Source: an uncultured Candidatus Saccharibacteria bacterium (GTDB lineage: Bacteria; Patescibacteriota; CAZHWT01). From it: 64,000 nucleotides of DNA. The notes under the pieces were generated by a model. It was not told the DNA's origin and ran no database searches. It saw only the letters and a program-made list of their open reading frames with translations. The DNA is taken from positions 317,798-381,797 of the forward strand of contig CAZKPX010000001.1 in the NCBI GenBank assembly GCA_964554805.1, written 5' to 3'. The translations under genes were made by a program, and so were the position numbers. Shown here piece by piece: positions 3,794 through 49,215 of this stretch (position 1 is the stretch's first letter; each line of letters starts with the position of its first letter).

Positions 3794-3910
3794 AATATTG
3801 GATATGGAATATTGAATATGGAGCTATATAGCTATATCCTATATTCAATATCCAGATACTAGTGTCCAATATTCTGGGATAATTGCATGAACTCGGGAGG
3901 GGTATTGTAT

Positions 3911-11618: not shown

Positions 11619-11713
11619 GCTGCAATATTACCCACCTCTCCGTGGTGCAGCTTCCGCCAGTTGGCGGACCAGCCTTTGGCTGGAGATGAATCCGTATTTA
11701 ACGGTAAACCAAG
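11619..11713 (+). repeat. three-hairpin structured element, b/e family copy 1
   Basis: tccgccagttggcgga hairpin, then ccagcc-ttt-ggctgg, then ccgt-attta-acgg, then taaaccaag; a homolog at 15440-15511 carries compensatory changes. Confidence 0.55.
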
Positions 11714-11737
11714 TGGTAATAGTGGAGACTTTTCGGT

Positions 11738-11844
11738 CCCCTTTAGTGGTTAAAGTGTTTTTGCTGGTCTTACGATTGTTCTCTTCGTCATTGCGAGGAG
11801 CGTAGCGACGCGGCAAGCTGTTTTGTATTAACCATTAAATGGGG
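11738..11844 (+). repeat. R3 structured repeat copy 1 (core tcgtcattgcgagRagcgtagcgacgcggcaa)
   Basis: 14-bp closing helix cccctttagtggttaa / ttaaccattaaatgggg; copies at 14329-14431 and 22101-22205. Confidence 0.6.
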
Positions 11845-11928
11845 CTGAAGGGGGAGAGTCAGAGGTCTGAGACTTGTCTCAGTGCTGATTAGCTCTGCAC
11901 CTGGGTTCGATTCCCGGCAGCTCCACAA
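11841..11928 (+). ncRNA. tmRNA-like tRNA-like domain (88 nt), lacking the mRNA-like body
   Basis: 5' ggggctg pairs with 3' cagctcc, including a G3-U70 pair; T-arm ctggg-ttcgatt-cccgg directly before the acceptor 3' strand; the middle is a simple helix plus hairpin with no tag ORF. Confidence 0.35.
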
Positions 11929-13076
11929 AGTACCCCATCGTCTATGGGGGTGGGCAGGCAGGTGCGTCGCGTCTTGCGATAGCCTCGTTTTGTCCTTCAT
12001 CCTCGAAAGGGATGAAAAAATGACTCAGGCACAGGCACAGGCACAGGCTCAGATTGTAAATCGAGCGTTGTCTTTGGTCGGCCAGGTGCCGACCGACCAT
12101 CCGGCTTCGGCTCGGCGAGCAAGGGCTCGGAGAGCCCCTGCTTGGGGCCGCCAGCAACGTGCTGGCGGAAGTCCGCGCTGCCGACAAGACAGCTAAGGCC
12201 ACCCTAACGGGTGGCAAAAAGAAGCGCAAATAGCGGTTCTGCCCGGTGAGTGACCGGGCGGAAATCAAATAGTCACTTCGAGGTGGACGTCTCGTTAACC
12301 GTATTCTGGTGTGGCCGACCACTGCTGTGCGATTTGCGCAGGAGTTAATTGGCTCCAGACTCATTCTGGAGAATCATATGGGGCTGAACCCCCTGGGAGA
12401 TTGAGGGATCTCCCCAGACAAAAATATCCTTCCTCCAGCTCGGAGCTAGGTGCGCAAGGTGTGCATCTGGAAGAGTTACAATTCTGGCCTACGTCCATTC
12501 CACGGATATGGCCTAGCGAAGGAGGGTCTGTTATGACCTAACTCCGCGGTGGTTGGGGCATGCTTCCCCAACCACCAACAACTTATAGACTGCGAGATAG
12601 ATTACCTCCACGTGGTGCAGTCTGGATAGATAATTCGAATAGATTCCTGTCTACACAGGAATGACGGATTGTTGAACTAAGTATCTAAACAGGAGAGTAT
12701 TCTTCTTCTCAATAGCATAATTCATCGGTCATCAGTGCGCGTTGGTTGTGCTGTTGAGGAGTGGAAACACTTCTCCGGTTACAGCATCTTGCGAGGGTTT
12801 ATATTCCCTCGATCTAGCTCTGCTGAGACTGTTCGTCGTTCTGCTCCAAGCCTATCATGGCTGGGTCAGGGGCGATGCATGGTCGGGCCCTCCGATATGG
12901 GTAGCGGTCTGGTTGGGGACTTTTAGTCCCTGACTAGGCCTCCCGCCTATCTGGGTTGGCTAGTCTGCCCTACAGGGGTATTAGCGGTGCAATGCCGCAG
13001 GCTAAAAATACAGACCAGTGTTCTGACTGCCACTGGGGTTCATTGCAGCCTGCAATGGATTAAACTCTGTAGTCGT

Positions 13077-13269
13077 AAATCCGTACCCTCGAACCGTCAG
13101 GAAGCGGTATTCGCCAATCTGGCGAAGTCCCCGGTTCAGCTCCTCGGACTACGATCCCCCAAAATCGTGTCCGAGGAGAACCCCTCGGCAGCATCCGCCA
13201 ACTGGCGGAGATACGCCTCCTCGTGGCGCTGCTGGATAGTCTATTGAAAGATGGATGAACTGAGTATCT
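13077..13269 (+). repeat. R1 structured repeat copy 1 (about 193 nt)
   Basis: aaatccg..ccgtcagga..cgccaatctggcg..variable hairpin..tccgccaactggcgga..agatac..GAAA-loop hairpin..gtatct; about 85% identical to 14117-14310 with compensatory substitutions. Confidence 0.65.
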
Positions 13270-13335
13270 AGGAGAAGTTTTAGCGTAAAGATTACTTCTG
13301 TCCCAATTAAGATTCAAGGTTGCTTGAGTTTTGGT

Positions 13336-13470
13336 TGGGGGAGGAGTGGTATTAAGACGCTACTTCTTTCGACCCCGTACCGCGTAAGCGGATTGAGTGA
13401 TTCTCAATAGCCTTGGTCGCTTGATTAAGGCTTTCCTGGCGGTGCAGACCGCCGCCGCCCATAGGAGGGC
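13336..13470 (+). promoter_or_regulatory. R2 conserved structured leader upstream of the ORF starting at 13474
   Basis: Shared with 20419-20547: G-run closing stem, ccgc-GNRA-gcgg hairpin (gtaa vs gtga), variable hairpin, ggcggt-gcag-accgcc hairpin just before the GGAGG RBS. Confidence 0.5.
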
Positions 13471-13473
13471 GCA

Positions 13474-13968
13474 ATGGCTATCGTGAAGACAAGCGATGTT
13501 GGTATCCGAGTCAATCAACTCTCTCTAGGGATGTGGAGAGAGTTGGGAATAGAGAAGCCTTCCAGGTTTTCTTTATGGGACTACCTGGAAGGCCTCGACA
13601 GGTCCGTCGAGGCCTTGGGCCTCAGGGGAGTGGCAGTAGCCTCAATGAGGTTCCTGCCAGACGCTGCGGTTGTCATCGTATGGGAGCTACGACTCCCGTA
13701 CGATGAAGCTAGGCGGTTCGAAAGTCTATCTGATGGGCAGAAGGAGCGATTCCTTCTGCCCTTAGACAAACCGCTTGAATTCTCGGAAAAGATTGTGAGC
13801 CTCAACACGGAGAGAAACACCCCTCCATGGGAGAGACTCACAATCTCTGGGACGGATTCGTCTCAGTCGTATCTTAGCAGGCCGACAGATCTCTTGCTTC
13901 AGTCGGAGGCGGAGGCTGCAATTGCAGCTTACCGCAGTCGGCTCGAGGAGCTGGTCTCCTCGCTGTAG
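13474..13968 (+). CDS. hypothetical protein
   Basis: 164-aa ORF; GGAGG RBS 5 nt upstream; preceded by the R2 leader. Confidence 0.5.
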   Translation: MAIVKTSDVGIRVNQLSLGMWRELGIEKPSRFSLWDYLEGLDRSVEALGLRGVAVASMRFLPDAAVVIVWELRLPYDEARRFESLSDGQKERFLLPLDKPLEFSEKIVSLNTERNTPPWERLTISGTDSSQSYLSRPTDLLLQSEAEAAIAAYRSRLEELVSSL

Positions 13969-14116
13969 GTTTTTCTAGCGGTCGCGACCGCTTAGCCCGG
14001 GGTTGACCGGGTGATCTCGAAGCCGTTTGCGTAGAGCGGCATCAACTAGTCTTCTCTACGTCCAGCGCACTGCTGCTGGGGTTAATGACAGCCTGTCATT
14101 GACTAGAAGTGCAGAC

Positions 14117-14310
14117 AAATCCGCAAACCTCTGAACCGTCAGGAGCGGTATTCGCCAATCCGGCGAAGTCCCCGGTTCAACTTCCTCAGGTTGCGACTCC
14201 TTGTCGCACCTGAGGGAGATTCCCTCGGCAGCATCCGCCAACTGGCGGAGATACGCCTCCTCGTGGCGCTGCTGGATAGTCTGTCGAAAGACAGATGAAC
14301 TAAGTATCTA
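14117..14310 (+). repeat. R1 structured repeat copy 2
   Basis: Collinear with 13077-13269. Confidence 0.65.
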
Positions 14311-14328
14311 GCATCAGAGACTTTCTGT

Positions 14329-14431
14329 CTCACTTAGTGGTTAACCTGTTTTTGTTGGTCTTACGATTGTTCTTCTCGTCATTGCGAGAAGCGTAGCGAC
14401 GCGGCAATCTAGTGTTTCGACCATTAAGTGA
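14329..14431 (+). repeat. R3 structured repeat copy 2
   Basis: Closing helix ctcacttagtggtt / gaccattaagtgag; the same core as copy 1. Confidence 0.6.
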
Positions 14432-14568
14432 GGGAGAAATCTCTCTGAAGAAAAGAATCAAAACCCTGGGGAAACTCAGGTCTCTGCCCGTCAGCAGAGG
14501 GAGTGAAGTGTAGTGGCCTGGCAGCGTGCCAAAGCCCGTACCGCTTATGCTCCGCATCCTGTGAAAGG

Positions 14569-15250
14569 GATGAACATGAACTGGCAGTTGATTTTTTCAG
14601 TGGCCTTCGTGGCCACTGTGGCGATCGCTATGATTGCCTTCGCCGGCCGAGAAATCGGCGAGGTGAAGGCGGGCGCCGCCGCCGCGGCGCGAAAGGCCGC
14701 GGCTACGGCCGCGGAGGCTACCGCCCAGAAATGGGCGGTGAAGTACCGCAACCTGGAGGTCCTTCGGGACCTCCAGGCTCTCTTCGGAAGCACCCCTGTG
14801 ACGATCTTTGGATCGTCACAGAAGGGGGGCGGTTTCACCGCCCCCGAACGACCGTCCGACCTCGACCTGATGGTCGAGGTTGACGACGAGACCTGGGCGG
14901 AGTGGGCCGCCCAGGTCTACCCGGCAGATCTCGTCGGGGCGGAAGCCCCCCCAGTTTACAACGACAACTGGGGCGGTGGCGAGACCGCTCTGGTTAGGGG
15001 GAGGACAATCACCGTTCTCCCTTACGAGACGGTCTACCCGACGCGCATTGCGCGCCGGGAGGCCGCCCAGGAGATCCTAGGCATCGAGATTGAGCCCCTC
15101 GGGCTCAATCTCGACATCTTCCTCTTCCCGCACTCGTTTGTGCGGGAAGAGATGACCATCCCGGCTTGGGATGGTGCGGAGACCGGAAGGTCTTTCCGGG
15201 AGGAGGTCCTGGCAGGAGTCAAGCTCTCTGAGCTTCAGCCTGCGGACTAA
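14569..15250 (+). CDS. nucleotidyltransferase (Pol-beta/MNT superfamily) with an N-terminal TM helix
   Basis: Motif IFGSSQKGGGFTAPERPSDLDLMVEVDD (GS-x9-SDxDL); N-terminal hydrophobic helix WQLIFSVAFVATVAIAMIAF; Ala-rich linker. Confidence 0.6.
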
Positions 15251-15439
15251 TGACCCTCAGCGCACTGCTGCGCTGGCTGACGACGCATTCGTTGGCGAAA
15301 TGAAGCAGATAGACCTTACCTCGGATCCTTCGCGACTGAGATGGTCGAACCCCGGGGAGCGTAAGCTCTCTGGGGAAACCCATGGCAGCAATTGATTCGC
15401 CTCTACGATGGCTCGCCTAGCCGAAATGCTAGTGCAGGC

Positions 15440-15511
15440 TGGCGCTGCTTCCGCCGGTTGGCGGACTGGTCTTTTGACCAGAGATGAATCCGTCTTGAAC
15501 GGTAAACCAAG
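15440..15511 (+). repeat. three-hairpin structured element, b/e family copy 2
   Basis: tccgccggttggcgga, then ctggtc-tttt-gaccag, then ccgt-cttga-acgg, then taaaccaag. Confidence 0.55.
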
Positions 15512-15661
15512 AATCAAAAATAAACGACATTGATGTCTCCAGGCTACTTGCTGGGGAACAATCAGGGGGCTTTTAACGTTGACCCCTGGTTGTTCCTTGG
15601 GCAGGGAACTAAAGCCAGCCGCGGGTGCGGTAGGCTGAACAATTGCCCTAGAGGAGGCCCT

Positions 15662-16012
15662 ATGGCCACCAAATTCATCAATCTAACCCCTCATACGATC
15701 AATGTTGTTGTTGTTGGGGAGGAGGGTGACGTTGTCGCCTCCTTCCCGGCTTCGGGACAGGAGGCTCGGGTGGCAACCACCCGGGAGCTGTCTCATAACC
15801 TCGACGCCGATGGTGTCGGGATCCCGGTCTTCAGGACCGGGTACGGGGAGATCGAGGGGCTGCCGGCCCCCGAGGCCGGCACTATCTTCGTCGTCTCTGG
15901 TCTGGTGGCTGCGGCCACCGACCGTGATGACGTCGTCTCTCCGGGCGAACTCGTCCGGAACTCCGAGGGGCAGCCGATTGGCTGCCGGGGGTTCTCCCGC
16001 CCCGCTCGATAG
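15662..16012 (+). CDS. hypothetical protein
   Basis: 117 aa from ATG 15662 with a gaggagg RBS; the longer ORF is open from 15530. Confidence 0.45.
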   Translation: MATKFINLTPHTINVVVVGEEGDVVASFPASGQEARVATTRELSHNLDADGVGIPVFRTGYGEIEGLPAPEAGTIFVVSGLVAAATDRDDVVSPGELVRNSEGQPIGCRGFSRPAR

Positions 16013-16209
16013 GGAGAGTTCGGTGGGTGTCCGAACTAAAATAACCACCCCAATTCCAGCCAGTGTGTCTGTGGCTGGGGGTTGGCTGTTGCTTGCAGCT
16101 GACGAAACAAATCTTCGGACATAGGGACCTAACCTGCTGCGGAAGCCTTTGGGTGACTAAGGCAATATCGGTTCCGGCTCCTGGGATGGTGAGATTACTC
16201 ATCGTTCTA

Positions 16210-16303
16210 GGAGACCTTCGTGGCAGCATCCGCCAACTGGCGGAGATACGCCTCCTCGTGGCGCTGCTGGATAGTCTGTTGAAAGATGGATGAACTAAGT
16301 ATC
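16210..16303 (+). repeat. R1 repeat, 3' half only
   Basis: ggcagcatccgccaactggcggagatacgcctcctcgtggcgctgctggatagtctgttgaaagatggatgaactaagtatc. Confidence 0.6.
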
Positions 16304-16658
16304 AGAAGGAAGAGTTTATTTTTGTTCTTAGCCCGTTGCTCTTAGGTGCCTAGTTGACCCTATTGGAAGATAGGGCCAATGGGTTGATTATTTAGCTGAG
16401 AGCAGCGTGGTGGGAATGAAAGAGTTGACGGCTTCTCGGGTGAGGAGCTTTTGGTGTATCTGGGGAGTGAGCAGGTATGCCGGGAGCTCCTCATTGAGGA
16501 GCGCAACCTAGGTGAATTGCAGTAAAAACTCTTTTGGGCAACCCTGCCCGATGCCGTAGGTGCTCTGGATGAAATTGAGCGCTGAATGGAAGTCAGTTAA
16601 AGACTGGCCGAGCAGGGTGGGTATTGTCGCGAGACGCCCCTGGCTCGAAGGAGTTGCT

Positions 16659-19600
16659 GTGAGCAACAATATTCTTCTTCCAATCTCCGCTTATCGGGCG
16701 GAGATTGAAGCAGGGGTGGATGGCGATTCGGTGGTGGTTGTCACCGCTGAAACGGGGACTGGGAAAAGCACGCAAGTGCCGCAGTACATGTTGGAGGCTG
16801 GGTATGATCTGGTAATCACCCAGCCGCGTCGGCTGGCCGCCCGAACAGTGGCCCAGCGAGTGGCCGAGGAAATCGGTCAGGAATTGGGCGGAATTGTTGG
16901 TTATCGGACGGCGGAGGATCGGCGAGATTCGTCGGACACCCGCTGTTTATTCGTGACCGATGGTCTTCAGCTTGTTCGCGAGCTGATGGGTCATGGGAAG
17001 CGGCAAGTTTTGATTCTGGACGAGGTCCATGAATGGAACGAGAACCTGGAAGTTCTCGTTGCCTGGGCCAAGCTCCAGATCGAAACTGGAGCTGATTTCA
17101 AGCTAGTGCTGATGAGCGCTACGCTTGAAGCCGACAAGTTGGCCGCCTATTTTGGTGGTGCGCCAGTTATCTCGGTTCCAGGCCGACTGTTTCCGGTGAC
17201 GGAGCAGAAGCCAGGAGGTTCGGTGGAAGCCGACGTTGCGGAGCTGGTTCGCCAGAGGCGCAATACACTGGTATTCCAGCCGGGCAAGGCGGAGATTGAG
17301 GCCACCTGTGCTGCTTTGCGGCAGATGCAAGTGTGGGCTGAGATTTTGCCTTTGCATGGGCAGTTGACCGCCGAGGAGCAGGCTCGCTGCTTCCGGCATT
17401 ACGGTAAACCCAAGGTGGTGGTGGCATCAAATGTGGCGCAGACCAGCGTCACAATTGACGATATCGACGCCGTTGTCGACTCCGGCATGGAGCGACGGAT
17501 TGAGTTGGTGGATGGGGTTGAGGGCTTGTACCTTAAGCCTATTTCGCTGGCTGATTCTGCGCAGCGCCGGGGTCGAGCTGGTCGGACGAAGGCAGGGATC
17601 TATATCGATCGCTGCCCGAGTGTCGACCGACCGGAGTTTCCGGTGGCCGAGATCCTGCGCAAGCGGCTCGACCAGACGGTACTCCGGTTGGCCAGTGCTG
17701 GGTTTGACATGGAAGAGCTGGAATTCTTCCATCAGCCTGACAAGGCTGACATCCACGAGGCTCGTCAGTCTCTAGTGGCTCTCGGCTGCATGACAGCGGC
17801 TGGAGAAGTCACATCGATGGGGAGACGGGTTAACAAGCTGCCGGTGTCAGTGCAGTATGCGCGGATGCTGGTGGAAGCTGAGCGGTTGGGGGTGGTGGAC
17901 GATCTCCTGACTGTGGCAGCTATCTTGGAGCAGGGCGGTATTACAGTTGCCCCCCCAAGTCGGTCTAATCTGACCCGACCTGATTGGCGCCGAATGGTGC
18001 CGCAGGAGCAGGAGTCGGATATTCTTGGTCAGCTGGTTGTCTATAAAATGGCAGCTGAGATGACCAATGACCAACTCTATCAGAGTGGGGTGGCTCTGAA
18101 GGCCTATTATCGGGCTAAGGAGATCCGCTCTCATTTGGCGAGGGCTCTGGGCGCTCGGTTCCATTCTGGTTCAACGGGTCGCCGCGAGGACATCCTCAAA
18201 GCGGTCTGTGCCGGGATGGTTGACCATCTCTACCATGGCACTGGTGGGGGATGGAAGAATGGTGACGATACTGTCCGAGAACTGGGCAGTTCGTCGCTGG
18301 TTCAGAATGCCAGTTGGTTGGTGGGTCGGCCTTTTGACCTGCAGATCAAGGCACGCTATGGGCATACCACCCTGCGCCTGATCGAGCTGGCGTCAAAGGT
18401 TGAGCCGAACTGGCTGGTCGAAGTCGCTCCGCATTTGGTGGAGCAACAGACTGGCCTGCAACCTCGCTTTGATGACCGGAAGGGGGTGGTGGTTTCGACC
18501 ACCAAGACTCTCTTTAATGGTCAAGAAGTGGGGGAAGAGGAGGTTGTGGATCGGGAGCACCCCGAAGCAGCCGATCTCTTTGCTGGCTGGCTGGCTGGGC
18601 TGAGTCAATCTCGGGCGGAGAGTCTGGGGTTGGAAATTATGGTTCGCAATCTGGCTCGCAACCAACGAGCTAAGGAGCTGAACCAGCGGGCCGGCGAGAC
18701 CCTCTTTGGGGTGGTTGAGCTGCAGGCTTGGTATCTTGCCAAGCTGGAGGGCGCTGGCAACTTTAAGGAGGTGGTGGAGAAGCAGGTGGCTGCGAAGTGC
18801 CTGCTGCCCGATCTCGACCAGGATTTGATTGATCTGGTGCTCCAAGAGCAGCCAGACTCGATTGAGTTGCTGGGCGAAGGCCTGAAAGTAGAGTATGTTG
18901 ATGGCTACGGTCATCGGCGTACTCACCCTAGAGTTCGGTTGTCGGATCAGCAGATTCAGGCGAAGGCCTGGCTTGAGCTGTCTGATGACCAGCCGGTTCG
19001 CCTGTCTGGCGGGCGAATGGTTGAAGTGGCGGTTGAAGTGGCTTATACTACTTTCTCCTCTACTGAGCCATTCCTGCTGAAGGAGCGGGTGCGCGAGTAC
19101 CTGAACCAGAAGCAGTGGGACGCCTGGCATCGACCAGAGGTCTCAGTTGAGGGGCTGGAGTCGGCAGATCAGATTCCGTTTATGACCGCTGTCTATGGAC
19201 AGTGCGTGGTGACGGGGCAGGATCTGCTGGCTTACGGTACCGTTCGGGCACGCCGGTATTGGTCCAGGATTGATCGCTGGCAGCCGGTGTGGGTTCGGTC
19301 TCTTGATGAGGCTGAACGGGTTCGATCCGAGGCAGTGGCAGCACTTGAAGAGGTGCGAGCTGAAGCTGAGGTGAAGGCTATGGAGTCCAGATTGAAGATT
19401 CTGGATGCCCATAACGGCTGGTTCTACCTTGATCGCTCGTCGGAGGCTTATAAGCGCCTTCAGGGCATAATGGTAGAAGTCCCGCCCGCTAGTCGGGAAT
19501 GGTTGATAGAGGCGGGGCGACTGGTTGAAGAGCTGGCTCCTGCCCTTGAGCAGGCCGAGCAAGATGGCTTGGCTGCTGAACAGGCAGCTAAGGCTGAGCA

Positions 19601-20090
19601 ACAGCAGATCGAAGAGAAGGCGGCTGGAATATTGGCTGCGGTCAATCCCAGTGGTCATCACAACTTTGGTTTGGCTGAGGTTCGGTTGGCGAGCCAGTTG
19701 GCCGAACAAGCGGTTCGGCTGGTGGGACAAGCCCGGGCTCAGGCGATCTTCCGAGAGGAAGCGGATGCTTCTTATCGAAGATCGCTCAAATGTCAGCGAA
19801 TCAGAGAGGCTATTCCTGGTTTGTTTGACACGGAAGTTGGGTCGCGGTTCCTCCAGATTCCGGCGCGGTATGTCACCGAATGGTGGTTGCAAGCGACGGC
19901 ATTGTGGTTGGAATCGAATACCACCACGTCGACCGAGGAGTTGCCTGCTCCTGCTCCTGCTCTGATTGAGCTGGAAGAGCAGCCGACGGTGTCAGTTTTG
20001 GCTGTCAAAGAACAGTCTGCCGAGGAGGCAGAAGAGTCTTTTGACAGTCCTATGGCGCTAGCAATGCGTCGGGCCGGGATTAAGTTTTAA
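16659..20090 (+). CDS. DEAH-box (HrpA/HrpB-like) ATP-dependent helicase with a roughly 450-aa C-terminal extension
   Basis: Walker A TGTGKSTQVPQ, DEVHE box, helicase-C and HA2-like region QRRGRAGR; GTG start at 16659 with an aaggag RBS matches the HrpB N-terminus (LPI..); the ORF is open from 16560. Confidence 0.85.
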   Translation: MSNNILLPISAYRAEIEAGVDGDSVVVVTAETGTGKSTQVPQYMLEAGYDLVITQPRRLAARTVAQRVAEEIGQELGGIVGYRTAEDRRDSSDTRCLFVTDGLQLVRELMGHGKRQVLILDEVHEWNENLEVLVAWAKLQIETGADFKLVLMSATLEADKLAAYFGGAPVISVPGRLFPVTEQKPGGSVEADVAELVRQRRNTLVFQPGKAEIEATCAALRQMQVWAEILPLHGQLTAEEQARCFRHYGKPKVVVASNVAQTSVTIDDIDAVVDSGMERRIELVDGVEGLYLKPISLADSAQRRGRAGRTKAGIYIDRCPSVDRPEFPVAEILRKRLDQTVLRLASAGFDMEELEFFHQPDKADIHEARQSLVALGCMTAAGEVTSMGRRVNKLPVSVQYARMLVEAERLGVVDDLLTVAAILEQGGITVAPPSRSNLTRPDWRRMVPQEQESDILGQLVVYKMAAEMTNDQLYQSGVALKAYYRAKEIRSHLARALGARFHSGSTGRREDILKAVCAGMVDHLYHGTGGGWKNGDDTVRELGSSSLVQNASWLVGRPFDLQIKARYGHTTLRLIELASKVEPNWLVEVAPHLVEQQTGLQPRFDDRKGVVVSTTKTLFNGQEVGEEEVVDREHPEAADLFAGWLAGLSQSRAESLGLEIMVRNLARNQRAKELNQRAGETLFGVVELQAWYLAKLEGAGNFKEVVEKQVAAKCLLPDLDQDLIDLVLQEQPDSIELLGEGLKVEYVDGYGHRRTHPRVRLSDQQIQAKAWLELSDDQPVRLSGGRMVEVAVEVAYTTFSSTEPFLLKERVREYLNQKQWDAWHRPEVSVEGLESADQIPFMTAVYGQCVVTGQDLLAYGTVRARRYWSRIDRWQPVWVRSLDEAERVRSEAVAALEEVRAEAEVKAMESRLKILDAHNGWFYLDRSSEAYKRLQGIMVEVPPASREWLIEAGRLVEELAPALEQAEQDGLAAEQAAKAEQQQIEEKAAGILAAVNPSGHHNFGLAEVRLASQLAEQAVRLVGQARAQAIFREEADASYRRSLKCQRIREAIPGLFDTEVGSRFLQIPARYVTEWWLQATALWLESNTTTSTEELPAPAPALIELEEQPTVSVLAVKEQSAEEAEESFDSPMALAMRRAGIKF

Positions 20091-20418
20091 TCTTTGTCGT
20101 GAGGCGGAGGCCTCGTATCAATACTCCAGCGGCTTGTGTTGACCGCTGACTGCCTACAGCGTGTAGGTAGTAAATTCTCAACACATCGGGCCTGTCCGTT
20201 ATTGACGGAGAACGACCCATTGGGTAGGGGGCTAAAACCCCTACCTACTTTACGGCTGCATATACATGCCTCTTCGTGGCGTAGCTAGAAATTCGTTTAT
20301 GTGACGAAGCTAAATGTATGAGAAGTGGAAGAAAGCTTACTTCTGTCTCAATCAGAGCTTGAGACTTTAGGCGTAGATTCCGGATCTAGTCCGGAATGAC
20401 GGCCTTTTGAGCTTTGTT

Positions 20419-20547
20419 TGGGGGGAGAAGTGCTATTAAGACGCTACTTCTTTCGTCCCCGTACCGCGTGAGCGGATTCAGCATCTCAATCCCCGGCCAC
20501 TTGGCTGGGGTTGTTGGCGGTGCAGACCGCCCACGCCTTTGGAGGGC
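20419..20547 (+). promoter_or_regulatory. R2 conserved structured leader copy 2
   Basis: Homolog of 13336-13470, directly upstream of the ORF starting at 20551. Confidence 0.5.
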
Positions 20548-20550
20548 AAA

Positions 20551-20994
20551 ATGATCATCTGCCCCACCATTTACTATTGTCATCCCGGGCAGGAGATACT
20601 TCTGCCTGTGGGGGCGGTCCGTCTGCAAGGGCAGGCGGATGGTTGGTGGGTGGGGGAAGATATCCCTCATCTGCCGTTTGGCCAGAGAAGGGTGAAGGGA
20701 GGGGTCTTCATTGTAGAGGAGGACCTCTCCGATCCCTCGTTCTATGTGGAGGTTGTTATCCTCCACAATGTGAATGAGGGCCTGCCTGGGGCCATCCCCG
20801 CGCTGTTGATTGGGATTGGGGAAGCAGCGCCCCTTGCTGTCCCCAGTAAGAGTGCCTATCGCACTCTGACCGCCGAGGCTACATGTCCTCACTGCGGTTG
20901 TGGTCGCGATTTTAGGCAAAGCTGGGTGGCGGTCGAAGGCTGTTATTTCTGCGATACAGCCATTCGTTCCCCGTTCAGTATGAGCCCAAGCTAG
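20551..20994 (+). CDS. hypothetical protein with a C-terminal Cys4 zinc-ribbon
   Basis: CPHCGCG..x16..CYFCD; GGAGG RBS; the overlapping minus-strand ORF 20386-20919 was rejected. Confidence 0.45.
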   Translation: MIICPTIYYCHPGQEILLPVGAVRLQGQADGWWVGEDIPHLPFGQRRVKGGVFIVEEDLSDPSFYVEVVILHNVNEGLPGAIPALLIGIGEAAPLAVPSKSAYRTLTAEATCPHCGCGRDFRQSWVAVEGCYFCDTAIRSPFSMSPS

Positions 20995-21300
20995 ACTGAA
21001 CCCCGGAGAGCTGGAGGCTCTCTGGGGAACCCAATGGCAGTATCCCCAACTGGCGGAGATACGCCTCCACGTGGCGCTGCTGGAATAGTGCTTATTGTCA
21101 GGCTGAACTAAATTCTGCAGAATAAATCTGCGAATAAATCCAAACAGGATGACATTGAGTATTAACTGAGTATCTGAGGGAGAGTTTTTTCTGTCCGCTT
21201 TAGTTTTTTGATTATGAAAATTGATGCTATGGGTACGTTGTTGCTCGGTGTCGATGGTGAGTTAAAAGATTGAAGCGGGGAGATGAATGATGGAGGCTGG

Positions 21301-21478
21301 GTTATGGCAGTGTGCTGTGGCGGCTTCTGTCGGGTATATTTGACATAAGCTGGGCTTGTGACTAGGAACCCGTTTCTGAAATTTGTCTGTGGCCTTGAGG
21401 AAGATAGGGCTGAGGGGTTATAGTGCGGTTGATGTTTTTTAACGGTTAGCCGCTATTTCGGAGACGGGTTTTTGGTAA
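21301..21478 (+). repeat. R4 direct repeat, left copy (about 178 nt)
   Basis: About 93% identical to 22267-22440. Confidence 0.7.
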
Positions 21479-21597
21479 GTAGGGGGGATTGCCGGTCCGC
21501 TTGAGGCTTTTGGGTAATGAAGCTTGAAGTGGGGTGGTATGTGAGGGCAGGGAAAGATTCTCTGCTTGGGACCTCCCAATTAGAAAGGAGGGGTGCA

Positions 21598-21789
21598 ATG
21601 CACCCAGTCTTTTTCTTGCTAGCAATAGCGGCCACGCTGGCCGCTATTGGAGCAGTCGCTTGGCTGCTCTTCGGCTTCCATCAGGACACTCGGAAGGCGC
21701 TCGAGGTCTCCGTTGAGACCCGGGTTGCCATTGCGGCGATCCTGATCGGCACGGCCGCGATTGGCTGGTGCCTGGCGGTATCGGTTTAG
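21598..21789 (+). CDS. small two-TM membrane protein (63 aa)
   Basis: MHPVFFLLAIAATLAAIGAVAWLLFG..AIAAILIGTAAIGWCLAV; followed by a perfect hairpin cgaggaaggagg..ccttccttcctcg. Confidence 0.35.
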   Translation: MHPVFFLLAIAATLAAIGAVAWLLFGFHQDTRKALEVSVETRVAIAAILIGTAAIGWCLAVSV

Positions 21790-22007
21790 CGTGGTGGTCG
21801 AGAAAACCCGCGAGGAAGGAGGTTATTACCTTCCTTCCTCGGGGGAATACATTTTATATTGGAGAAGGAGTTGGTTTTGTAAGTGAGAAGAAAGAAGAGA
21901 GATCTTGTGGAGCAACAGGCGACAAGCGACCCCGATAGATCGGGGCAGGCTCGGCGACGAGACCTGGATTTGCGAAGCAAGCAACAGTGAACCTTAATAA
22001 TCAAATA

Positions 22008-22085
22008 ATGGCTGCAATATTACCCATCTCTCCGTGGTGCAGTCTGGATAGTCTGTTGAAAGACGGATGAACTGAGTATCTGACA
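22008..22085 (+). repeat. R1-variant repeat (ggctgcaatattaccca..ccgtggtgcag..ctggatagtctgttgaaagacggatgaactgagtatct)
   Basis: Shares its 5' module with 11619-11650 and its 3' module with R1. Confidence 0.55.
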
Positions 22086-22100
22086 TCAGAGACTTTCTGT

Positions 22101-22205
22101 CTCGCTTAGTGGTTGAGCTAGTTGACGCTTGTTTATGATTGTTCTTCTTGTCATTGCGAGAAGCGTAGCGACGCGGCAATCTAGTCTATTTGACCACTGA
22201 GTGAG
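22101..22205 (+). repeat. R3 structured repeat copy 3
   Basis: Closing helix ctcgcttagtggtt / gaccactgagtgag, with G-U and A-U substitutions relative to copy 2. Confidence 0.6.
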
Positions 22206-22266
22206 GGAGAAATCTCTCTGAAGATCGGATGGCCTGTCAGTCAAGGCGGGTAGGAAGAGTGGTTGG

Positions 22267-22440
22267 GGCAGCAGTGTGCTGTGGCGGCTTCTGTCGGGTA
22301 TATTTGACATAAGCTGGGCTTGTGACTAGGAACCTGTTTCTGAAATTTGTCTGTGGCCTTGAGGAAGATAGGGCCGAAGGGCTATAGTGAGATTAACTTG
22401 TTGTTAGTCACTATTTCGGAGACGGGTTTTTGGTTGGAAT
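22267..22440 (+). repeat. R4 direct repeat, right copy
   Basis: See 21301-21478. Confidence 0.7.
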
Positions 22441-22528
22441 AGCACGGCACGGCTTTTGAAGTGAATAGTGGGTGCTTGGTTGTTGCGTTATGGTATAATA
22501 TGCTGTCACAATTGCTTGTTGCCTGGGA

Positions 22529-23050
22529 GTGCTGGGCGGTGGTTGTGATAAAGGAGAGTGTTCGGTGGTTCAGCAAGAAACTAGCCCCGTAGAGTTGGGT
22601 AAGTATGAAATTTCACCCGAGGACTTTGAAGCGCTTCGGGCGCTATTACCTGCCCCGGTGGAGACGACGGTTGTTGAGTTTCTTCGTCATCACAATATTG
22701 TCAAGTCATTCGAAGCCCACGGTATTGTCTTGTTGCCATCCAGAGCTCGCAGCGGTCCAAAAGTCTCCTTGAACGAGGATGTTGGCCTTGAGGATTTACT
22801 GACAGGTCAGTGCGTCTTATTGGGAGCGTATTTGTCGGGATGGGGCGGCCCACTACTTTGTTCGTACGCATGGCATTGGGCTGTGGCAAGAAATGGCAAC
22901 GAGACGCTTCCATTTCTGAAGGAGCAGGATGGTCCAAAATATGACCAGTGGACTGGCTACGGCGCTTTTGATCAGTTGCTGGGCTTAATGCCGAGCTGGT
23001 TGAAGCTTGACTCGGACTGGCGAATTGAGGATGGTTGGATTCGCCGATAA
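22529..23050 (+). CDS. hypothetical protein
   Basis: 173-aa ORF. Confidence 0.4.
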   Translation: MLGGGCDKGECSVVQQETSPVELGKYEISPEDFEALRALLPAPVETTVVEFLRHHNIVKSFEAHGIVLLPSRARSGPKVSLNEDVGLEDLLTGQCVLLGAYLSGWGGPLLCSYAWHWAVARNGNETLPFLKEQDGPKYDQWTGYGAFDQLLGLMPSWLKLDSDWRIEDGWIRR

Positions 23051-23156
23051 CGGAGATAGACAGTGGGGTGGAGGGAAATTCTCTCCACCCTGTTGCATTT
23101 TGCTAACAATACATCTTGTTTTTGATAGTTATTATGAGTAAGCTTGGCTATAAGAG

Positions 23157-23507
23157 TTGAGCATAAAGGTTGATTTAAAAGGCAAGGAGCAGAGGATGTC
23201 ACTGGTCGCACCGGAAGTCATGACGTGTACGCCGCATCATTCGACTGAGATGGCGATCATGAAACTTTGCCCAAAGGGCGAGGAGATTGAATCGGTGTCG
23301 GCTGTTTTGAGTTGGTTCTGGTTGGGAGCTTATGTTAATGAGCGTGGGCGGGTAGTGCTGGAATGGCTGCCGTGCCTCAAGGTGGGGTGGGAGAGTTTTC
23401 TGCCGAACCAGAAGGCTGAGCTGTTTGAGCGAGTTGGATTGGCGATTCTGGAGATGGAGCTGCCACAACAATGGGTTATTGTTGACGGACGGCTTCGCAG
23501 ACGGTGA
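23157..23507 (+). CDS. hypothetical protein
   Basis: 116-aa ORF. Confidence 0.35.
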   Translation: MSIKVDLKGKEQRMSLVAPEVMTCTPHHSTEMAIMKLCPKGEEIESVSAVLSWFWLGAYVNERGRVVLEWLPCLKVGWESFLPNQKAELFERVGLAILEMELPQQWVIVDGRLRRR

Positions 23508-23778
23508 GCCAATCAGGAGTTTTAATTGGAATAGAGAGATATTAGCGCCTCCTGGGTAGGAACCAGGGGGCTTTTTATGGGCAGGTTATGGGACTGTTGT
23601 TGGGATTTATTGTTCATAATGAGGCACTCCTATTTATTTTTATATAAGGATATAGTTTATTATTTGAGTATATATATTTATATAGTGGTTGTATTTGAAA
23701 ACAGAGCATTATCTTGCTATACTCTGTGCCTAAACGTGTCTGTCGCAAAACAGGGCAACAAGTTTGAAGGAGTGAGGG

Positions 23779-24354
23779 ATGTGGTTAAAAGATTCAGACG
23801 CGCTGACCGGCAGTCTGAGAAAATGGGTGAGAGGGGTGACTCCTGAACCGGCTCATTTCAGTGTTCAAATGGCGCTCGATGCAGCCAGGGAACTTGGCTT
23901 ATGGATTGAGCGCGATGGAGACAACCGCCGCATTGTGCTTAAAAACTACAGCATCGGCATGATAACTCCGAGCATTGAACTGGTGAATCGAGATCGTGTT
24001 CAGGAGAAGCTGCAGCAGCCGGCGCAGTTTGAGGCTACTATGTATTCATGGGGTTACCTAGACCCTGGTGGCGTTCTGATTGAACCTATACCCGCCATCT
24101 ATAATCTCGGAGGCACGGTTTCCTTCGAAATTCAAGTTCATGGCATTCATTGTGATCCTCATAAAGCGGGCTCTTTGGGTGGGTCATGGACAAGAGGTAG
24201 GGAGGAAATTGGCTTGCTGATTGGCGCATGGTTGAACCCATTCATTCATCAAGTAGTGCTACCTGAGCCGGTGGTGATTGATTGGAAAGAAAAGGTGAGC
24301 GGTAGAAACCTGATGAGTGACGCAGAGCGGATCTGCTTCGCCTCGGAGCGTTAA
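23779..24354 (+). CDS. hypothetical protein
   Basis: 191-aa ORF, preceded by an AT-rich low-complexity tract at 23600-23720. Confidence 0.45.
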   Translation: MWLKDSDALTGSLRKWVRGVTPEPAHFSVQMALDAARELGLWIERDGDNRRIVLKNYSIGMITPSIELVNRDRVQEKLQQPAQFEATMYSWGYLDPGGVLIEPIPAIYNLGGTVSFEIQVHGIHCDPHKAGSLGGSWTRGREEIGLLIGAWLNPFIHQVVLPEPVVIDWKEKVSGRNLMSDAERICFASER

Positions 24355-24637
24355 ACTGATTCTCGCTAAGGATTTAGGTTCTTTGAGAGATGAGACGAGT
24401 GGTCCGGGTTATCGTGGAGGCGATACCCGGACTTTTTCTGTTGTCGGCACTTTGTTGGTATTAAATGTTGCAACAAGTTTTATTATGCCCTTAGGATGTA
24501 TGCTTGAAATTGAGGGGGAGAGCTGATAGAATAAGCCGTGTTCCGGCTATGTAGTGAACAGAGAAAAGAAGACGTGAGAAGTTTTTACAATCCTATATTC
24601 CTCGGTAGCTCTCCGCCAGCTGGCGGAGGCAGAGTAT

Positions 24638-25180
24638 TTGAAAATGGTTGTCTATGCTATTTACAATCAGAAGCATGATAAGATTTATATCGGTCAGACC
24701 GAAGATCTTGATTTGCGTCTCGACCTGCACAATAGTAAAGACTTCATTAAAAGCTACACTGCACGATTTGATGGCGTATGGAAGTTAATTTACCAAGAAG
24801 CAGTTGGTAATCGAGTAGAAGCTCTAACTCGCGAAAAGCAGCTTAAATCTTATCGCGGCAGACAATTCATAAAATCTTATATTCCTCGGTATCCGCCAGC
24901 TGGCGGGAGGAAGCTGCCACTCATAACAATGTGGTATGTCTACTGCCTATATAATTATGATAATGATAAGATTTATATTGGTTATACGGGCGATTTTGAC
25001 AGGCGCATTATTGAACACAATCTCAAGAAAGATAAAAGTTCGTATACTGCAAGGTTCGACGGTGAGTGGGTTTTGATTTATAAGGAAGAAGTCTCCAACA
25101 AATCAGAAGCTGCAAAACGTGAAAAGTCTTTAAAGTCGTTCAGGGGGCGTGAGTATTTACAATCTTATATTCCTCGGTAG
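24638..25180 (+). CDS. tandem double GIY-YIG nuclease (two YhbQ/UPF0213-like modules fused in one ORF)
   Basis: Module 1 VYAIYNQKHDKIYIGQTEDLDLRLDLHNS..SYTARFDGVWKLIY; module 2 VYCLYNYDNDKIYIGYTGDFDRRIIEHN..SYTARFDGEWVLIY; each ends ..SYIPR encoded by aatcttatattcctcggta; the stop codon overlaps the tRNA-Asn 5' end. Confidence 0.7.
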   Translation: MKMVVYAIYNQKHDKIYIGQTEDLDLRLDLHNSKDFIKSYTARFDGVWKLIYQEAVGNRVEALTREKQLKSYRGRQFIKSYIPRYPPAGGRKLPLITMWYVYCLYNYDNDKIYIGYTGDFDRRIIEHNLKKDKSSYTARFDGEWVLIYKEEVSNKSEAAKREKSLKSFRGREYLQSYIPR

Positions 25181-25245
25181 CTCAATGGCAGAGCAGGAAG
25201 CTGTTAACTTCAAGGTTGTTGGTTCGAATCCAGCCCGAGGAGCCA
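25171..25245 (+). tRNA. tRNA-Asn (anticodon GTT)
   Basis: Acceptor tcctcgg/ccgagga; D-stem gctc/gagc; anticodon loop ctGTTaa; T-arm gttgg-ttcgaat-ccagc; gCCA encoded. Confidence 0.85.
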
Positions 25246-25252
25246 TGAATAT

Positions 25253-25277
25253 GGCCACCCTAAAGGTGGCTATTTTC
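25253..25277 (+). terminator. terminator hairpin after tRNA-Asn
   Basis: ggccaccctaaaggtggc then tattttc. Confidence 0.5.
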
Positions 25278-25282
25278 ATGGC

Positions 25283-25375
25283 CTATTGGCATGATTTCGG
25301 CCAACTGCAACTGCAACTGCAGCATGGGCGTCGTGCGAGCGATTTTAATTACGACATCCAGTCCGAGGAGTCAGT
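25283..25375 (+). repeat. R5 repeat, partial copy
   Basis: ..ggcgtcgtgcgagcgattttaattacgacatccagtccgaggag; related to 26285-26425 and 28033-28165. Confidence 0.5.
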
Positions 25376-25463
25376 AAGTAAAGCACCCGACTGAGAGGCC
25401 AAGCTTTTTTCTGGCTGTTTGTGGCCTGGTAAAAATCAATCGGTCTGAAGGTGTTAGTTGGGA

Positions 25464-26120
25464 TTAGAGATTGGCGGAGTTTTTTCTAATGACTGGGGCT
25501 GCCTTCGAGGGCTCAATCTCGGAAATAATCTGATCTACTGTCTGGTTGTCTAGTCTTTTTGCCATTTTATCTCTAAAGATCTCCAGGTCACGAATGTAGC
25601 CATTGGCGTCGCATACTGTATTTGGGTCGCCCCCTATCGAAAGCTGGTATGCTGGACTTTCGTCTTTGGCCAAGTCTATAACGCTGTCGCACCAGCTGCT
25701 AATTGAGGACGAAAATGTTAGATAGAACTTATCCCCGAGACTTTCGTTGCGTATATTTGTTCCGTCAAGACTAAAATCAGTAGATGTGCCATCAATAAAA
25801 GGATTTGGCTCAAACTCTGTTACATCAACACTGCAGAAGATATTGCTGTCTGGCCTCAGACTTAATTCAATATATATTGACTGGCCCTCATTATCGAGAC
25901 AAATGAGCCCTTCCCGATCATGCGAAAAGATGCAGTTGCGGACGGCTTCTAGATATTCGAAGGGGTAGTCGGACACAGCACTCGCCGTAATGTCAAAAAT
26001 GACACCAGTGATAATGCCGTCTCTGGAGCGTATCAAGGCGTGTCCCCACTCAGGCAATGAGGCATTTGAGAGTGATAGAGGGTGTTCACCTAGGGCGGAT
26101 ATCTGCAAGGTGTAGTTCAT
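25464..26120 (-). CDS. hypothetical protein
   Basis: 218-aa ORF. Confidence 0.45.
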   Translation of the reverse strand: MNYTLQISALGEHPLSLSNASLPEWGHALIRSRDGIITGVIFDITASAVSDYPFEYLEAVRNCIFSHDREGLICLDNEGQSIYIELSLRPDSNIFCSVDVTEFEPNPFIDGTSTDFSLDGTNIRNESLGDKFYLTFSSSISSWCDSVIDLAKDESPAYQLSIGGDPNTVCDANGYIRDLEIFRDKMAKRLDNQTVDQIISEIEPSKAAPVIRKNSANL

Positions 26121-26284
26121 ATTGTGGTTATTTTACCATCTACGTGCCTCATATAGTAATCTTTTGTACTAGGATAAAGTTACAACCTTAGTAACTAATC
26201 TGAGGTTTAAGATTTAGGTTTTCTAAGACCGTGACTACTTCTGGCCTTTGGTCAAATTCAATTTCTCGGTTGCGGAAAGCGTCC

Positions 26285-26425
26285 ACTAACGAGAGCCAAA
26301 ATATGGTTATGACCGTAAGCTTGTGGCCATATTTTTTGTTTGTCGGTATGATTTCGAGCAACTGCGAAGGCAGCTTGGGGCGTTGTGCGAGCGATTTTGA
26401 TCGCGACATCCAGTCTGAAGGCCAA
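26285..26425 (+). repeat. R5 repeat copy (caaaaatatgg..ccatattttttg hairpin plus the gatttcgagcaactgcgaagg..gcgttgtgcgagcgatttt module)
   Basis: About 90% identical to 28033-28165. Confidence 0.65.
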
Positions 26426-26532
26426 AGAGGCTGCTAGGTATCTTCGATGTACTAATTAATTTTGCATCTAAACTAGTTCAGATGATGCTCCAGTTTGACT
26501 TAAGACCTATAGTGTAGTATAACAAAGAAATA

Positions 26533-48799: not shown

Positions 48800-48876
48800 T
48801 GGTGGGCGCGCATGGACTTGAACCATGGACCTGACGCTTATAAGACGTCCGCTCTAACCAGCTGAGCTACGCGCCC
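48800..48876 (-). tRNA. tRNA-Ile (anticodon TAT)
   Basis: Reverse complement gggcgcg-ta-gctc..gagc-g-gacgt-ctTATaa-gcgtc-..catgg-ttcaagt-ccatg-cgcgccc-a-cca. Confidence 0.7.
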
Positions 48877-48904: not shown

Positions 48905-49010
48905 TATCTGCTACCTAACTTATGCTCCAGTTGGTTAGAGCGGACTGGTCCGCTTATTATCTCTATTTCGGCTCCGCCTCCGCCGGTTGGCGGAGCAGCT
49001 GAGCTACGTT
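48905..49010 (-). other. tRNA-derived fragments interrupted by a ccgccggttggcgg hairpin
   Basis: The minus strand reads cgtagctcagctg and then ctccgccaaccggcggag; a 13-nt identity (cagctgagctacg) with the adjacent tRNA-Ile. Confidence 0.4.
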
Positions 49011-49204: not shown

Positions 49205-49215
49205 CTTTATTAATT

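Follow-up and report, generated by a model that had tools for sequence, protein, structure and literature searches.

The 64-kb stretch of an uncultured Candidatus Saccharibacteria bacterium analyzed here (contig CAZKPX010000001.1; called the window below) carries, within the transcription unit of its tRNA-Asn(GUU) gene, two diverged cassettes in tandem, each with a piece of tRNA-Asn, a short hairpin and a small GIY-YIG nuclease module, together with an older cassette decayed to 12 codons. The locus is probably an array of homing-type cassettes, two plus a relic, of a kind widespread in Patescibacteria that rebuilds its target, tRNA-Asn(GUU). The cassette looks like an undescribed selfish element that reconstructs the gene it invades, and a literature search found no description of this arrangement of a nuclease cassette and tRNA-Asn. 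The activity and target of the nuclease, and actual mobility, are inferred. Loci and contigs compared with the window are labeled L001, L002 and so on.

The 64-kb window contains exactly three copies of the 14-nt sequence TATATTCCTCGGTA, starting at 24594, 24878 and 25166, and a repeat search returned an ungapped 45-nt family at 24586, 24870 and 25158. If as many as two mismatches are tolerated, chance would yield 0.29 matches, and none of 100 shuffles reached three. The third copy continues into an intact tRNA-Asn(GTT) gene, recognized by ARAGORN and by Rfam (63.5 bits). The other two are dead 5′ fragments of the same gene, and directly after them, at 24612 and 24892, stands TCCGCCAGCTGGCGG(A/G), which forms a hairpin. 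Sequence of the tRNA flanks the hairpin on both sides in both dead copies, positions 1–13 and 17–23 in copy 1 and positions 1–9 and 25–33 in copy 2. The initial annotation of the locus had reported the three copies, had taken the last one for the genuine 5′ end of tRNA-Asn and had placed a hairpin after the first two, and all of this was borne out. Its view of the hairpin as a plain insertion junction in the D arm was not, since the tRNA resumes after the hairpin and runs to position 23–38 before the open reading frame (ORF).

Both nuclease modules lie in one fused ORF with two PF01541 GIY-YIG domains (Pfam, E 1e-29, 103 bits, gathering cut-off 22.6); taken separately, module 1 gave E 3.8e-14 and 53.2 bits and module 2 gave E 2.4e-16 and 60.2 bits. 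The last three codons of module 2 and its TAG stop (25178–25180) correspond to positions 1–10 of tRNA-Asn. Module 1 has no stop of its own because copy 2 of the repeat lost the four nucleotides GCTC, TAG becoming TAT, and its frame continues across the hairpin (..IPR-YPPAGGRKLPLIT-M..) to join module 2. The fusion into one ORF is therefore due to the 4-nt deletion and not to the tRNA-derived C-terminus as such. The relic of a third module aligns at the DNA level with the ends of modules 1 and 2, with 67% identity over 12 aa to the C-terminus of module 2 by tblastn. As to what had been annotated here, one GIY-YIG module of 82–83 aa does follow each dead copy, and the remnant of a third C-terminus is real, though short, with only 12 codons preceded by stops. 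The C-termini described as ..SYIPR-stop within the tRNA-like segment stand for module 2 and fail for module 1, which has no stop, and the fusion had been attributed to the wrong cause. The earlier interpretation is thus partly supported, right in its main thrust and in need of refinement in its details.

Misassembly of the window was considered and is argued against by a contig from a separate assembly in Logan (L042, SRR16797978), with 100% identity over 982 nt and the identical fused ORF, although the two may share reads. A promoter-like site lies upstream of the first dead fragment, and its match alone does not exceed the shuffle expectation. In other genomes, an extended −10 element (TGnTAAAAT) is found at the equivalent place, before the tRNA in empty loci or before the dead fragment in filled ones. 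The site in the window is presumed to be the tRNA-Asn promoter, now driving the whole array. Coordinates are collected in the table.

Table. Features of the tRNA-Asn locus and its surroundings, in window coordinates.
Feature	Position	Strand	Remarks
Promoter-like TTGAAA-17-TAGAAT with TG extension	24504..24532	+	Precedes the first dead tRNA fragment
Relic of a third module, ..REKFLQSYIPR-TAG, 12 codons + stop	24570..24608	+	Stop codons precede
Dead tRNA-Asn 5′ fragment, copy 1, tRNA positions 1–13 (TCCTCGGTAGCTC)	24599..24611	+	
Hairpin 1, TCCGCC-AGCT-GGCGGA, replacing the D loop	24612..24627	+	Stem predicted stable
GGCAGAG, tRNA-Asn positions 17–23, resuming past hairpin 1	24628..24634	+	
Fused 180-aa ORF with both modules and the translated hairpin linker (YPPAGGRKLPLIT)	24638..25180	+	Same ORF in L042
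GIY-YIG module 1, 82 aa from ATG; TTG at 24638 as alternative start; no own stop	24644..24889	+	
Dead tRNA-Asn 5′ fragment, copy 2, tRNA positions 1–9 (TCCTCGGTA)	24883..24891	+	GCTC lost
Hairpin 2, TCCGCC-AGCT-GGCGGG	24892..24907	+	Closing pair U.G in sense-strand RNA
AGGAAGCTG, 5′ strand of the tRNA-Asn anticodon stem and loop start (gene positions 25–33)	24908..24916	+	
GIY-YIG module 2, 83 aa	24929..25180	+	Pfam PF01541; AF2 model pLDDT 92
Intact tRNA-Asn(GTT), encoded CCA	25171..25245	+	ARAGORN; Rfam RF00005, 63.5 bits
Dead tRNA-Asn 3′ fragment (ATCCAGTCCGAGGAGTCA) after a different hairpin (GTCGT..ACGAC)	25326..25373	+	3′ fragment at 25356
41-nt unit with the tRNA-Asn 3′ fragment at its end, second copy (88%)	26378..26418	+	

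The cassette is a conserved unit. A scan with one genome per GTDB species gave 31 cassette loci, from Levyi-, Berkel-, Roizman-, Campbell-, Yanofsky-, Moranii-, Gottesman- and Harrisonbacteria, Saccharibacteria and Paceibacterota, and about 35 Patescibacteria loci in all show the hairpin, then the GIY-YIG ORF and then an overlapping tRNA-Asn. The order in almost all of them is an extended −10 promoter, a tRNA-Asn 5′ piece, the hairpin, more tRNA sequence, the ORF and an intact tRNA-Asn. The left fragment is of two types, with tRNA-Asn positions 1–13 (type A) or 1–10 (type B). The ATG follows 11–34 nt past the hairpin, the ORF encodes 82–83 aa and its stop codon falls within the intact tRNA-Asn. 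The closest proteins are 52–59% identical, all from Patescibacteria and most with the ..IPR end, and in every readable contig their gene lies directly upstream of tRNA-Asn, overlapping or abutting it. The last residues vary with the acceptor sequence of the tRNA (IPR, IPL or IPA) and are therefore dictated by it. The wider family comprises 878 clusters at E ≤ 1e-10, with many gene calls starting in translated tRNA or hairpin sequence. Cassette versions were also found at tRNA-Lys (L038 and, mirrored, L039) and at tRNA-Glu (L040), and none of about 40 other loci retains both paralogues of the window.

The distribution of the cassette is patchy. A strict tRNA pattern that included the acceptor sequence of the window gave no match in metagenomes, and a relaxed pattern with the tRNA-Asn anticodon and T arms alone retrieved 80 metagenomic loci. 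Only 7 of these 80 carry the cassette and 3 a second type of GIY-YIG gene, and the cassette-free ones have no hairpin; the exact hairpin motif was not matched in two cassette-bearing loci, L073 and L115. The gene order dnaG-rpoD-tRNA-Asn is common to many of these genomes, and orthologous sites were compared among those with RpoD 84–91% identical to that of L002. The rpoD-tRNA-Asn locus is empty in L103, L098, L074, L116 and L087 and filled in L002, L024/L082 and L019, a presence/absence polymorphism at an orthologous site of the kind expected for a free-standing homing endonuclease gene. In the empty locus L103, the tRNA begins about 120 nt after rpoD, right behind the promoter; in L002, that promoter is separated from the tRNA by the dead fragment, the hairpin and the ORF, in this order. 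Units of fragment and hairpin with no ORF stand between ORF and tRNA in L011, L024 and L014, and L020 has at least two of them in tandem, probably more, in a stretch partly masked as N. The comparison of related genomes proposed with the initial annotation as its check has given empty rpoD-tRNA-Asn sites, single modules, ORF-less relics and tandem arrays, an outcome that favors the initial interpretation over the condition named as its refutation.

Two related arrangements were observed at other loci. L173 (1300–2500) contains at least four identical 321-nt tandem units, each with a tRNA 3′ fragment (T arm and acceptor strand) and then a GIY-YIG ORF of a related subfamily; an intact tRNA was not detected in the 2.8 kb examined. 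A second, unrelated family of small GIY-YIG proteins (about 100 aa) adjoins tRNA-Asn in L003 (3356–3667), L056, L066 and L117. Its gene lies downstream of the tRNA and is followed by a tRNA 3′ fragment, or lies upstream behind a D loop with a different long hairpin (L117).

Evidence for horizontal movement comes from proteins and tRNA fragments. Module 1 is 59–60% identical to module 2 and 70–73% identical to the cassettes L027, L018, L036, L013 and L002, and the distance between the two modules (59% identity) is as large as their distance to cassettes in other phylum-level lineages. Since module 1 is nearer to foreign cassettes than to module 2, the two were probably acquired separately, judging from these identities, and the repeated insertion of one and the same element, as first proposed, does not hold. 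The two leader fragments of the window are of different types, A and B, each also found in other genomes. Module 2 falls in the type B clade of a neighbour-joining protein tree of 83 residues, yet it is about equally similar to proteins of type A and of type B (57–60% identity).

The fragments themselves give a mixed picture with respect to co-conversion. The first nine bases of the resident tRNA are present in 22 of 27 left fragments, compared with 9% for non-self pairs, yet foreign tRNA parts accompany the cassette in three loci. In L012, the fragment has the resident acceptor sequence with a foreign anticodon-stem piece, CAGGAAGCTGT. The nearest relatives of L003 by RpoD, L087 (91%) and L067 and L117 (87%), all have a TCCCCTG-type tRNA-Asn; the dead fragment of L003 is also TCCCCTG-type, while its working tRNA is TCCGCGA-type, like the L002/L074/L103 group. 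L016 shows the same conflict of native fragment and foreign tRNA relative to L030. From this mismatch in L003 and L016, the cassette seems to have come with a foreign tRNA-Asn, displacing the native 5′ end. The claim that the element supplies a replacement 5′ part of the tRNA agrees with these two loci, where the fragment is native to the clade and the working tRNA foreign, and also with the geometry of the window, where a native-looking promoter lies directly before the dead fragment.

The hairpin has the 16-nt consensus TCCGCC-NNNN-GGCGGA and usually takes the place of the D loop. Its stem is identical in 44 of 50 non-redundant copies, while the loop occurs in nine forms. One variant, TCCGTC/GACGGA (L039, L073), is a compensatory double change, and the variants GGTGGA (L038, L040) and GGCGGG (copy 2 of the window) give G.U pairs on the sense strand only. 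This pattern of substitutions indicates that the pairing is under selection. The position varies: the D loop in most loci, the whole D arm replaced (type B), after the D arm (L030, L032), the anticodon stem of tRNA-Lys (L038, L039), the inside of a group I intron (L027) and T-arm positions of dead downstream tRNA copies (L001, L023, L031); in L003, L034, L031 and L001, it is nested in another hairpin. Because the tRNA resumes after the hairpin and the position differs among loci, the hairpin is a conserved component in its own right, and its conservation marks it as a selected, sequence-specific element. It could neutralize the dead fragment, break the homology of the direct repeats, control translation or serve as a nuclease site. 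In the predicted fold of the second leader of the window, UUCCUC pairs with GAGGAA, which lengthens the stem and would cover the sole Shine–Dalgarno-like sequence there.

Each of the nine hairpin sites in the window either adjoins sequence derived from a tRNA or falls within the block that precedes tRNA-Asn, and about 200 kb of flanking DNA from other genomes contained one hairpin only outside a cassette. A dispersed palindromic repeat similar to repetitive extragenic palindromes or miniature inverted-repeat transposable elements was ruled out, the hairpin being almost confined to cassettes.

The nuclease belongs with the smallest members of its fold. A profile search against PDB sequences found 1YWL (E 3.5e-5) and 1ZG2 (E 7.8e-5), the UPF0213 proteins EF2693 and BH0048, so the YhbQ-like label of the initial annotation fits. 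The AlphaFold model is confident (predicted local distance difference test, pLDDT, 92) and shows a GIY-YIG fold, with 1ZG2 and 1YWL as top Foldseek matches, followed by HIGLE, Slx1 and the I-TevI catalytic domain; identity to the UPF0213 structures in the fold search is 30–39% over aligned residues. Residues Y5, Y16, G18, R26, H30 and E65 are invariant in nine sequences and present in both window modules, and we take the Tyr, Arg and His to correspond to the catalytic residues of I-TevI and the Glu to its metal-binding residue. Residues and model together make the nuclease active-looking. It is a stand-alone minimal domain of the UPF0213/YhbQ/Slx1-like kind, with 82–83 aa of catalytic domain and no domain for binding a long DNA target. 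NCBIfam holds no specific family for the cassette protein, and membership of a known named family or defence system was rejected, as NCBIfam, PHROGs and PADLOC gave only weak generic GIY-YIG matches.

A homing-type cycle would run as follows. A naive tRNA-Asn would be cut and repaired from a cassette-bearing donor, as in the spread of a free-standing homing endonuclease gene, with the tRNA-derived repeats flanking the cassette as homology arms, and repair would bring along the donor tRNA in part or whole. The anatomy itself is directly visible: the tRNA promoter and, as the dead 5′ fragment, the first 9–13 nt of the tRNA remain in place, and the complete tRNA-Asn that encloses the ORF end (..YIPR-TAG) rebuilds the interrupted gene. 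Recombination between repeats may then delete the ORF, giving solo relics, remove the cassette cleanly or build arrays. The nuclease would be transcribed from the hijacked tRNA promoter, with relic, modules 1 and 2 and tRNA on one transcript. Cleavage by RNase P at tRNA +1 (25171) would strip the last three codons and the stop from the ORF, so that full translation would be possible only from the unprocessed precursor and would exclude tRNA maturation from the same transcript. Such an exclusion may keep a potentially harmful nuclease scarce. The hairpin would act in sense-strand RNA or in single-stranded DNA, as a neutralizer of the dead fragment or as a cis element.

Several points weigh against this interpretation. 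As the rebuilt tRNA-Asn is intact, a nuclease directed at the tRNA gene should cut the copy of its own host, and the model offers no account of immunity. The protein is a catalytic domain without the DNA-binding domain that confers specificity on known GIY-YIG homing enzymes. One protein-pattern and two DNA-pattern scans of IMG/VR gave no relatives on viral contigs, and a phage-borne cassette was rejected on these scans. The protein tree that places module 2 is weak. The agreement of 22 of 27 fragments with the resident tRNA is as compatible with local duplication or concerted evolution as with import, and an ancient cassette often lost cleanly by way of its flanking repeats could also give the patchy distribution. 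A role of the hairpin in breaking homology alone fails to explain the strict conservation of the stem.

Alternatively, the cassette may not be selfish but a domesticated host gene, an old, vertically inherited partner of tRNA-Asn lost repeatedly by recombination of the flanking repeats. Its product, either an RNase or a nuclease for DNA structures, could target the tRNA-Asn precursor or the highly transcribed tRNA-Asn gene; it would share a transcript with the tRNA and have the tRNA-like leader and hairpin as regulators. Such a role agrees with a gene order kept across very deep lineages, with intact ORFs and invariant catalytic residues, with leaders that track the resident acceptor sequence in 22 of 27 genomes and with hairpin variants that fit a sense-strand RNA structure; for a prokaryotic Slx1-like GIY-YIG domain fused to a TrmH-like tRNA methyltransferase, a function in RNA metabolism has been proposed (PMC1564403). 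We nevertheless consider domestication unlikely, given that the cassette is absent from most tRNA-Asn loci of close relatives, that ORF-less relics and arrays exist, that tRNA-Lys and tRNA-Glu have related cassettes, with mirrored orientation among them, that L003, L016 and L012 have foreign tRNA parts and that the window modules are not each other's closest relatives. The array might also come from purely local tandem duplication, in which a single ancestral GIY-YIG gene upstream of tRNA-Asn and the tRNA 5′ end were copied by unequal crossing-over and diverged in place. Direct repeats do flank each module, and the identical tandem units of L173 (at least four) and the tandem ORF-less units of L020 are what this process would leave; for the window, it is highly improbable, with modules only 59% identical while module 1 reaches 70–73% with genes of other lineages, with leader fragments of types A and B each common to other genomes and with no locus of the other 40 or so bearing both paralogues.

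The hairpin and tRNA fragment could instead form the site of a site-specific recombination cassette, comparable to an integron attC or a transposase end, with the recombinase elsewhere and the GIY-YIG gene as its commonest cargo. The invariant stem with a variable loop, the nested hairpins of L003, L034, L031 and L001, the hairpins in loops of other structured RNA (the group I intron of L027, the T-arm positions of L001, L023 and L031) and six further hairpin units before co-oriented ORFs in the GC-rich block between rpoD and tRNA-Asn are all in line with it. We judge it quite improbable, as no integrase or transposase was found beside cassettes, apart from a resolvase fragment 1.2 kb off in L007, as flanking DNA from other genomes has one hairpin outside cassettes in about 200 kb and as the hairpin is almost always accompanied by a GIY-YIG ORF or relic. 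It is also conceivable, if rather unlikely, that hairpin and tRNA fragment are the cis site of a new mobile system, with a catalytic-only nuclease guided by the extruded hairpin or tRNA-like fold in place of a DNA-binding domain and with other cargo too, so that the 14-kb GC-rich block would be an integron-like array anchored at a tRNA gene. Finally, a group I intron at tRNA-Asn position 35/36 might have decayed, its ribozyme lost and its endonuclease remaining. Type B fragments end at gene position 33–34 (34 in four of five loci), matching the 35/36 site at which group I introns have been reported in Patescibacteria tRNA-Asn (PMC13011429), and cassette and such an intron occur together in L014, L022 and L027. 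This origin can hardly be credited, however: the window region has no ribozyme signal and no room for one, with the ORF starting 11–34 nt after the hairpin and ending inside the next tRNA, a full tRNA and not a 3′ exon follows the ORF, and the endonucleases reported at the 35/36 site are HNH and not GIY-YIG (PMC13011429).

Two further candidates were discarded. A group I intron proper was rejected, since Rfam at E ≤ 1 found only tRNA in 23500–26500, with no intron in the window and a complete tRNA after the ORF. An integrase-mediated tRNA island was rejected because the scanned neighboring ORFs have no integrase domain and because the cassette duplicates the 5′ and not the 3′ end of the tRNA, with separate 3′ fragments at 25356 and 26378+; no recognizable families were found among the flanking ORFs of the window.

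Among known systems, the closest parallel found to the homing-type cassette is that of the mobile endonuclease ORFs (mORFs) of fungal mitochondria, reported for Allomyces macrogynus (atp6-ORF360) and Glomus (atp6, atp9, cox2 and nad3), in which a host gene harbors an inserted endonuclease ORF (of the GIY-YIG type in atp9) and, with it, a copy of the terminal part of that gene (PMC3630166). In both cases, the host gene is functional and the displaced native part is a dead duplicate; the part brought in is foreign and the part it displaced matches that of close relatives (PMC3630166), a pattern also observed in L003 and L016. The anatomy is thus shared, by analogy of mechanism and not by homology. 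The host of the cassette is a bacterial tRNA gene instead of a mitochondrial protein gene, and the 5′ end is duplicated instead of the 3′ end. The cassette also differs in its bare 83-aa nuclease domain, in the conserved hairpin of the displaced fragment and in having its stop codon inside an RNA gene.

In phage T4, SegB is a free-standing GIY-YIG endonuclease encoded in a tRNA gene cluster and inherited preferentially through cleavage of the homologous region and co-conversion of flanks, and shares with the cassette an intron-less GIY-YIG gene among tRNA genes (PMC2330249). The cassette family differs in having no relatives in the viral contigs scanned (IMG/VR). Seg proteins run to about 200 aa or more and contain domains for DNA binding. 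We know of no Seg gene that overlaps a tRNA, duplicates part of one or has an associated hairpin.

Prokaryotic Slx1-like proteins were described as the minimal form of the fold by Dunin-Horkawicz et al. (2006), with one case of fusion to a TrmH-like tRNA Gm18 (D-loop) methyltransferase (PMC1564403). The cassette protein resembles the UPF0213/YhbQ/Slx1-like group in its minimal domain, without a C-terminal Asn extension or extra domains. The match to UPF0213 has only E 3.5e-5, and a tRNA linkage of that family is not mentioned in PMC1564403. Nakagawa et al. (2026) reported group I introns with HNH endonucleases at tRNA-Asn 35/36 in Patescibacteria, the same phylum and tRNA, and the type B junction falls at that 35/36 site (PMC13011429). 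The cassette differs from these introns in lacking a ribozyme and in leaving the tRNA unsplit behind a partial duplicate. In rRNA genes of the candidate phyla radiation, Tsurumaki et al. (2024) found GIY-YIG ORFs within non-intron insertions, sparse and judged to lie outside the homing context (PMC11270868). Like the cassette, these are cases, in the same bacterial group, of a GIY-YIG gene that lies in a structural RNA gene and lacks intron features; those insertions lie in rRNA, and tRNA duplication and hairpin are undescribed there (PMC11270868).

The tRNA-Asn of these very small Patescibacteria genomes seems to be a repeated target of selfish DNA, with the known group I introns and now a nuclease cassette. 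If mobile, the cassette (about 290 nt) would be, to our knowledge, the smallest self-contained homing-type unit and the first endonuclease ORF to overlap and regenerate a bacterial tRNA gene. It would also be the first known to us with an apparent exchange of whole tRNA genes among lineages as a by-product (L003, L016). The cassette also offers an entry point to the function of UPF0213/YhbQ/Slx1-like mini-nucleases. For annotation, gene calls of cassette ORFs often carry spurious N-terminal extensions translated from tRNA or hairpin sequence, and dead tRNA fragments can mislead the prediction of tRNAs and att sites.

Behind the cassettes of L014 (2848–3062), L022 and L027, tRNA-Asn is split by a 35/36 group I intron (Rfam 80.9 bits in L014). 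These split genes were missed by ARAGORN, and the intron of L027 bears the hairpin peripherally. In L001 (3352–3452) and L023 (2845–2960), a tRNA-Asn-like gene lies downstream of the real tRNA-Asn with the hairpin replacing both D loop and T arm. Its acceptor stem is intact and its anticodon arm has GTT, with encoded CCA in L001 only; the L001 gene has a foreign-type anticodon stem (as in L013) with internal compensation. This tRNA-Asn-like gene may be a dead copy, or it may encode a functional armless tRNA-like RNA.

Downstream of tRNA-Asn in the window, the unit with a tRNA 3′ fragment is probably the relic of a 3′-side cassette, of which L003, L056, L031 and L039 give examples with tRNA 3′ fragments in other genomes. 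The two 41-nt units, at 25326–25366 and 26378–26418, bracket a minus-strand ORF (25464–26120) and may be the remains of insertions 3′ of tRNA-Asn.

Between dnaG/rpoD (1907–5101) and tRNA-Asn, the window has a block (10900–24500) of co-oriented plus-strand ORFs of unknown function with a DEAH helicase (16560–20090). GC content is 56% at 12–20 kb and about 46% elsewhere, and the spacing between rpoD and tRNA-Asn in other Patescibacteria is only 0.1–2.6 kb. Six more hairpin copies lie in the block, at 10911, 11653, 13194, 14234, 15450 and 16229, in repeated intergenic units of family A (13169–13268, 14209–14308 and 16204–16303) and family B (11643–11713 and 15440–15511). Degenerate acceptor sequences of tRNA-Asn stand before these hairpin units. 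The family A hairpin is preceded by CCCTCGGCAGCA, to be compared with TCCTCGGTAGCTC of tRNA-Asn, and by a mini-helix of both acceptor strands. The block may be an array of hairpin-led cassettes.

A further unit was observed on the minus strand at 48920–49012, upstream of tRNA-Ile(TAT) (48803–48876), where GTAGCTCAGCTG, equal to tRNA-Ile positions 8–19, is followed by the hairpin TCCGCCAACCGGCGGA and by no ORF; an inverted copy of the D and anticodon arms of tRNA-Ile is found at 48923–48960 (+). This unit looks like a decayed cassette at a second tRNA. Elsewhere in the window, a tRNA-like element at 11841–11928 matches both ends of the transfer-messenger RNA model without its middle (42.8 bits, below the gathering score of 47), and an 89-nt repeat upstream of it (11731–11819) recurs at 14322–14410. 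At 49150–49200, a run of CAGAGAA heptamers at the start of the ORF 49120–49923 translates to TENREQRTENREQR.

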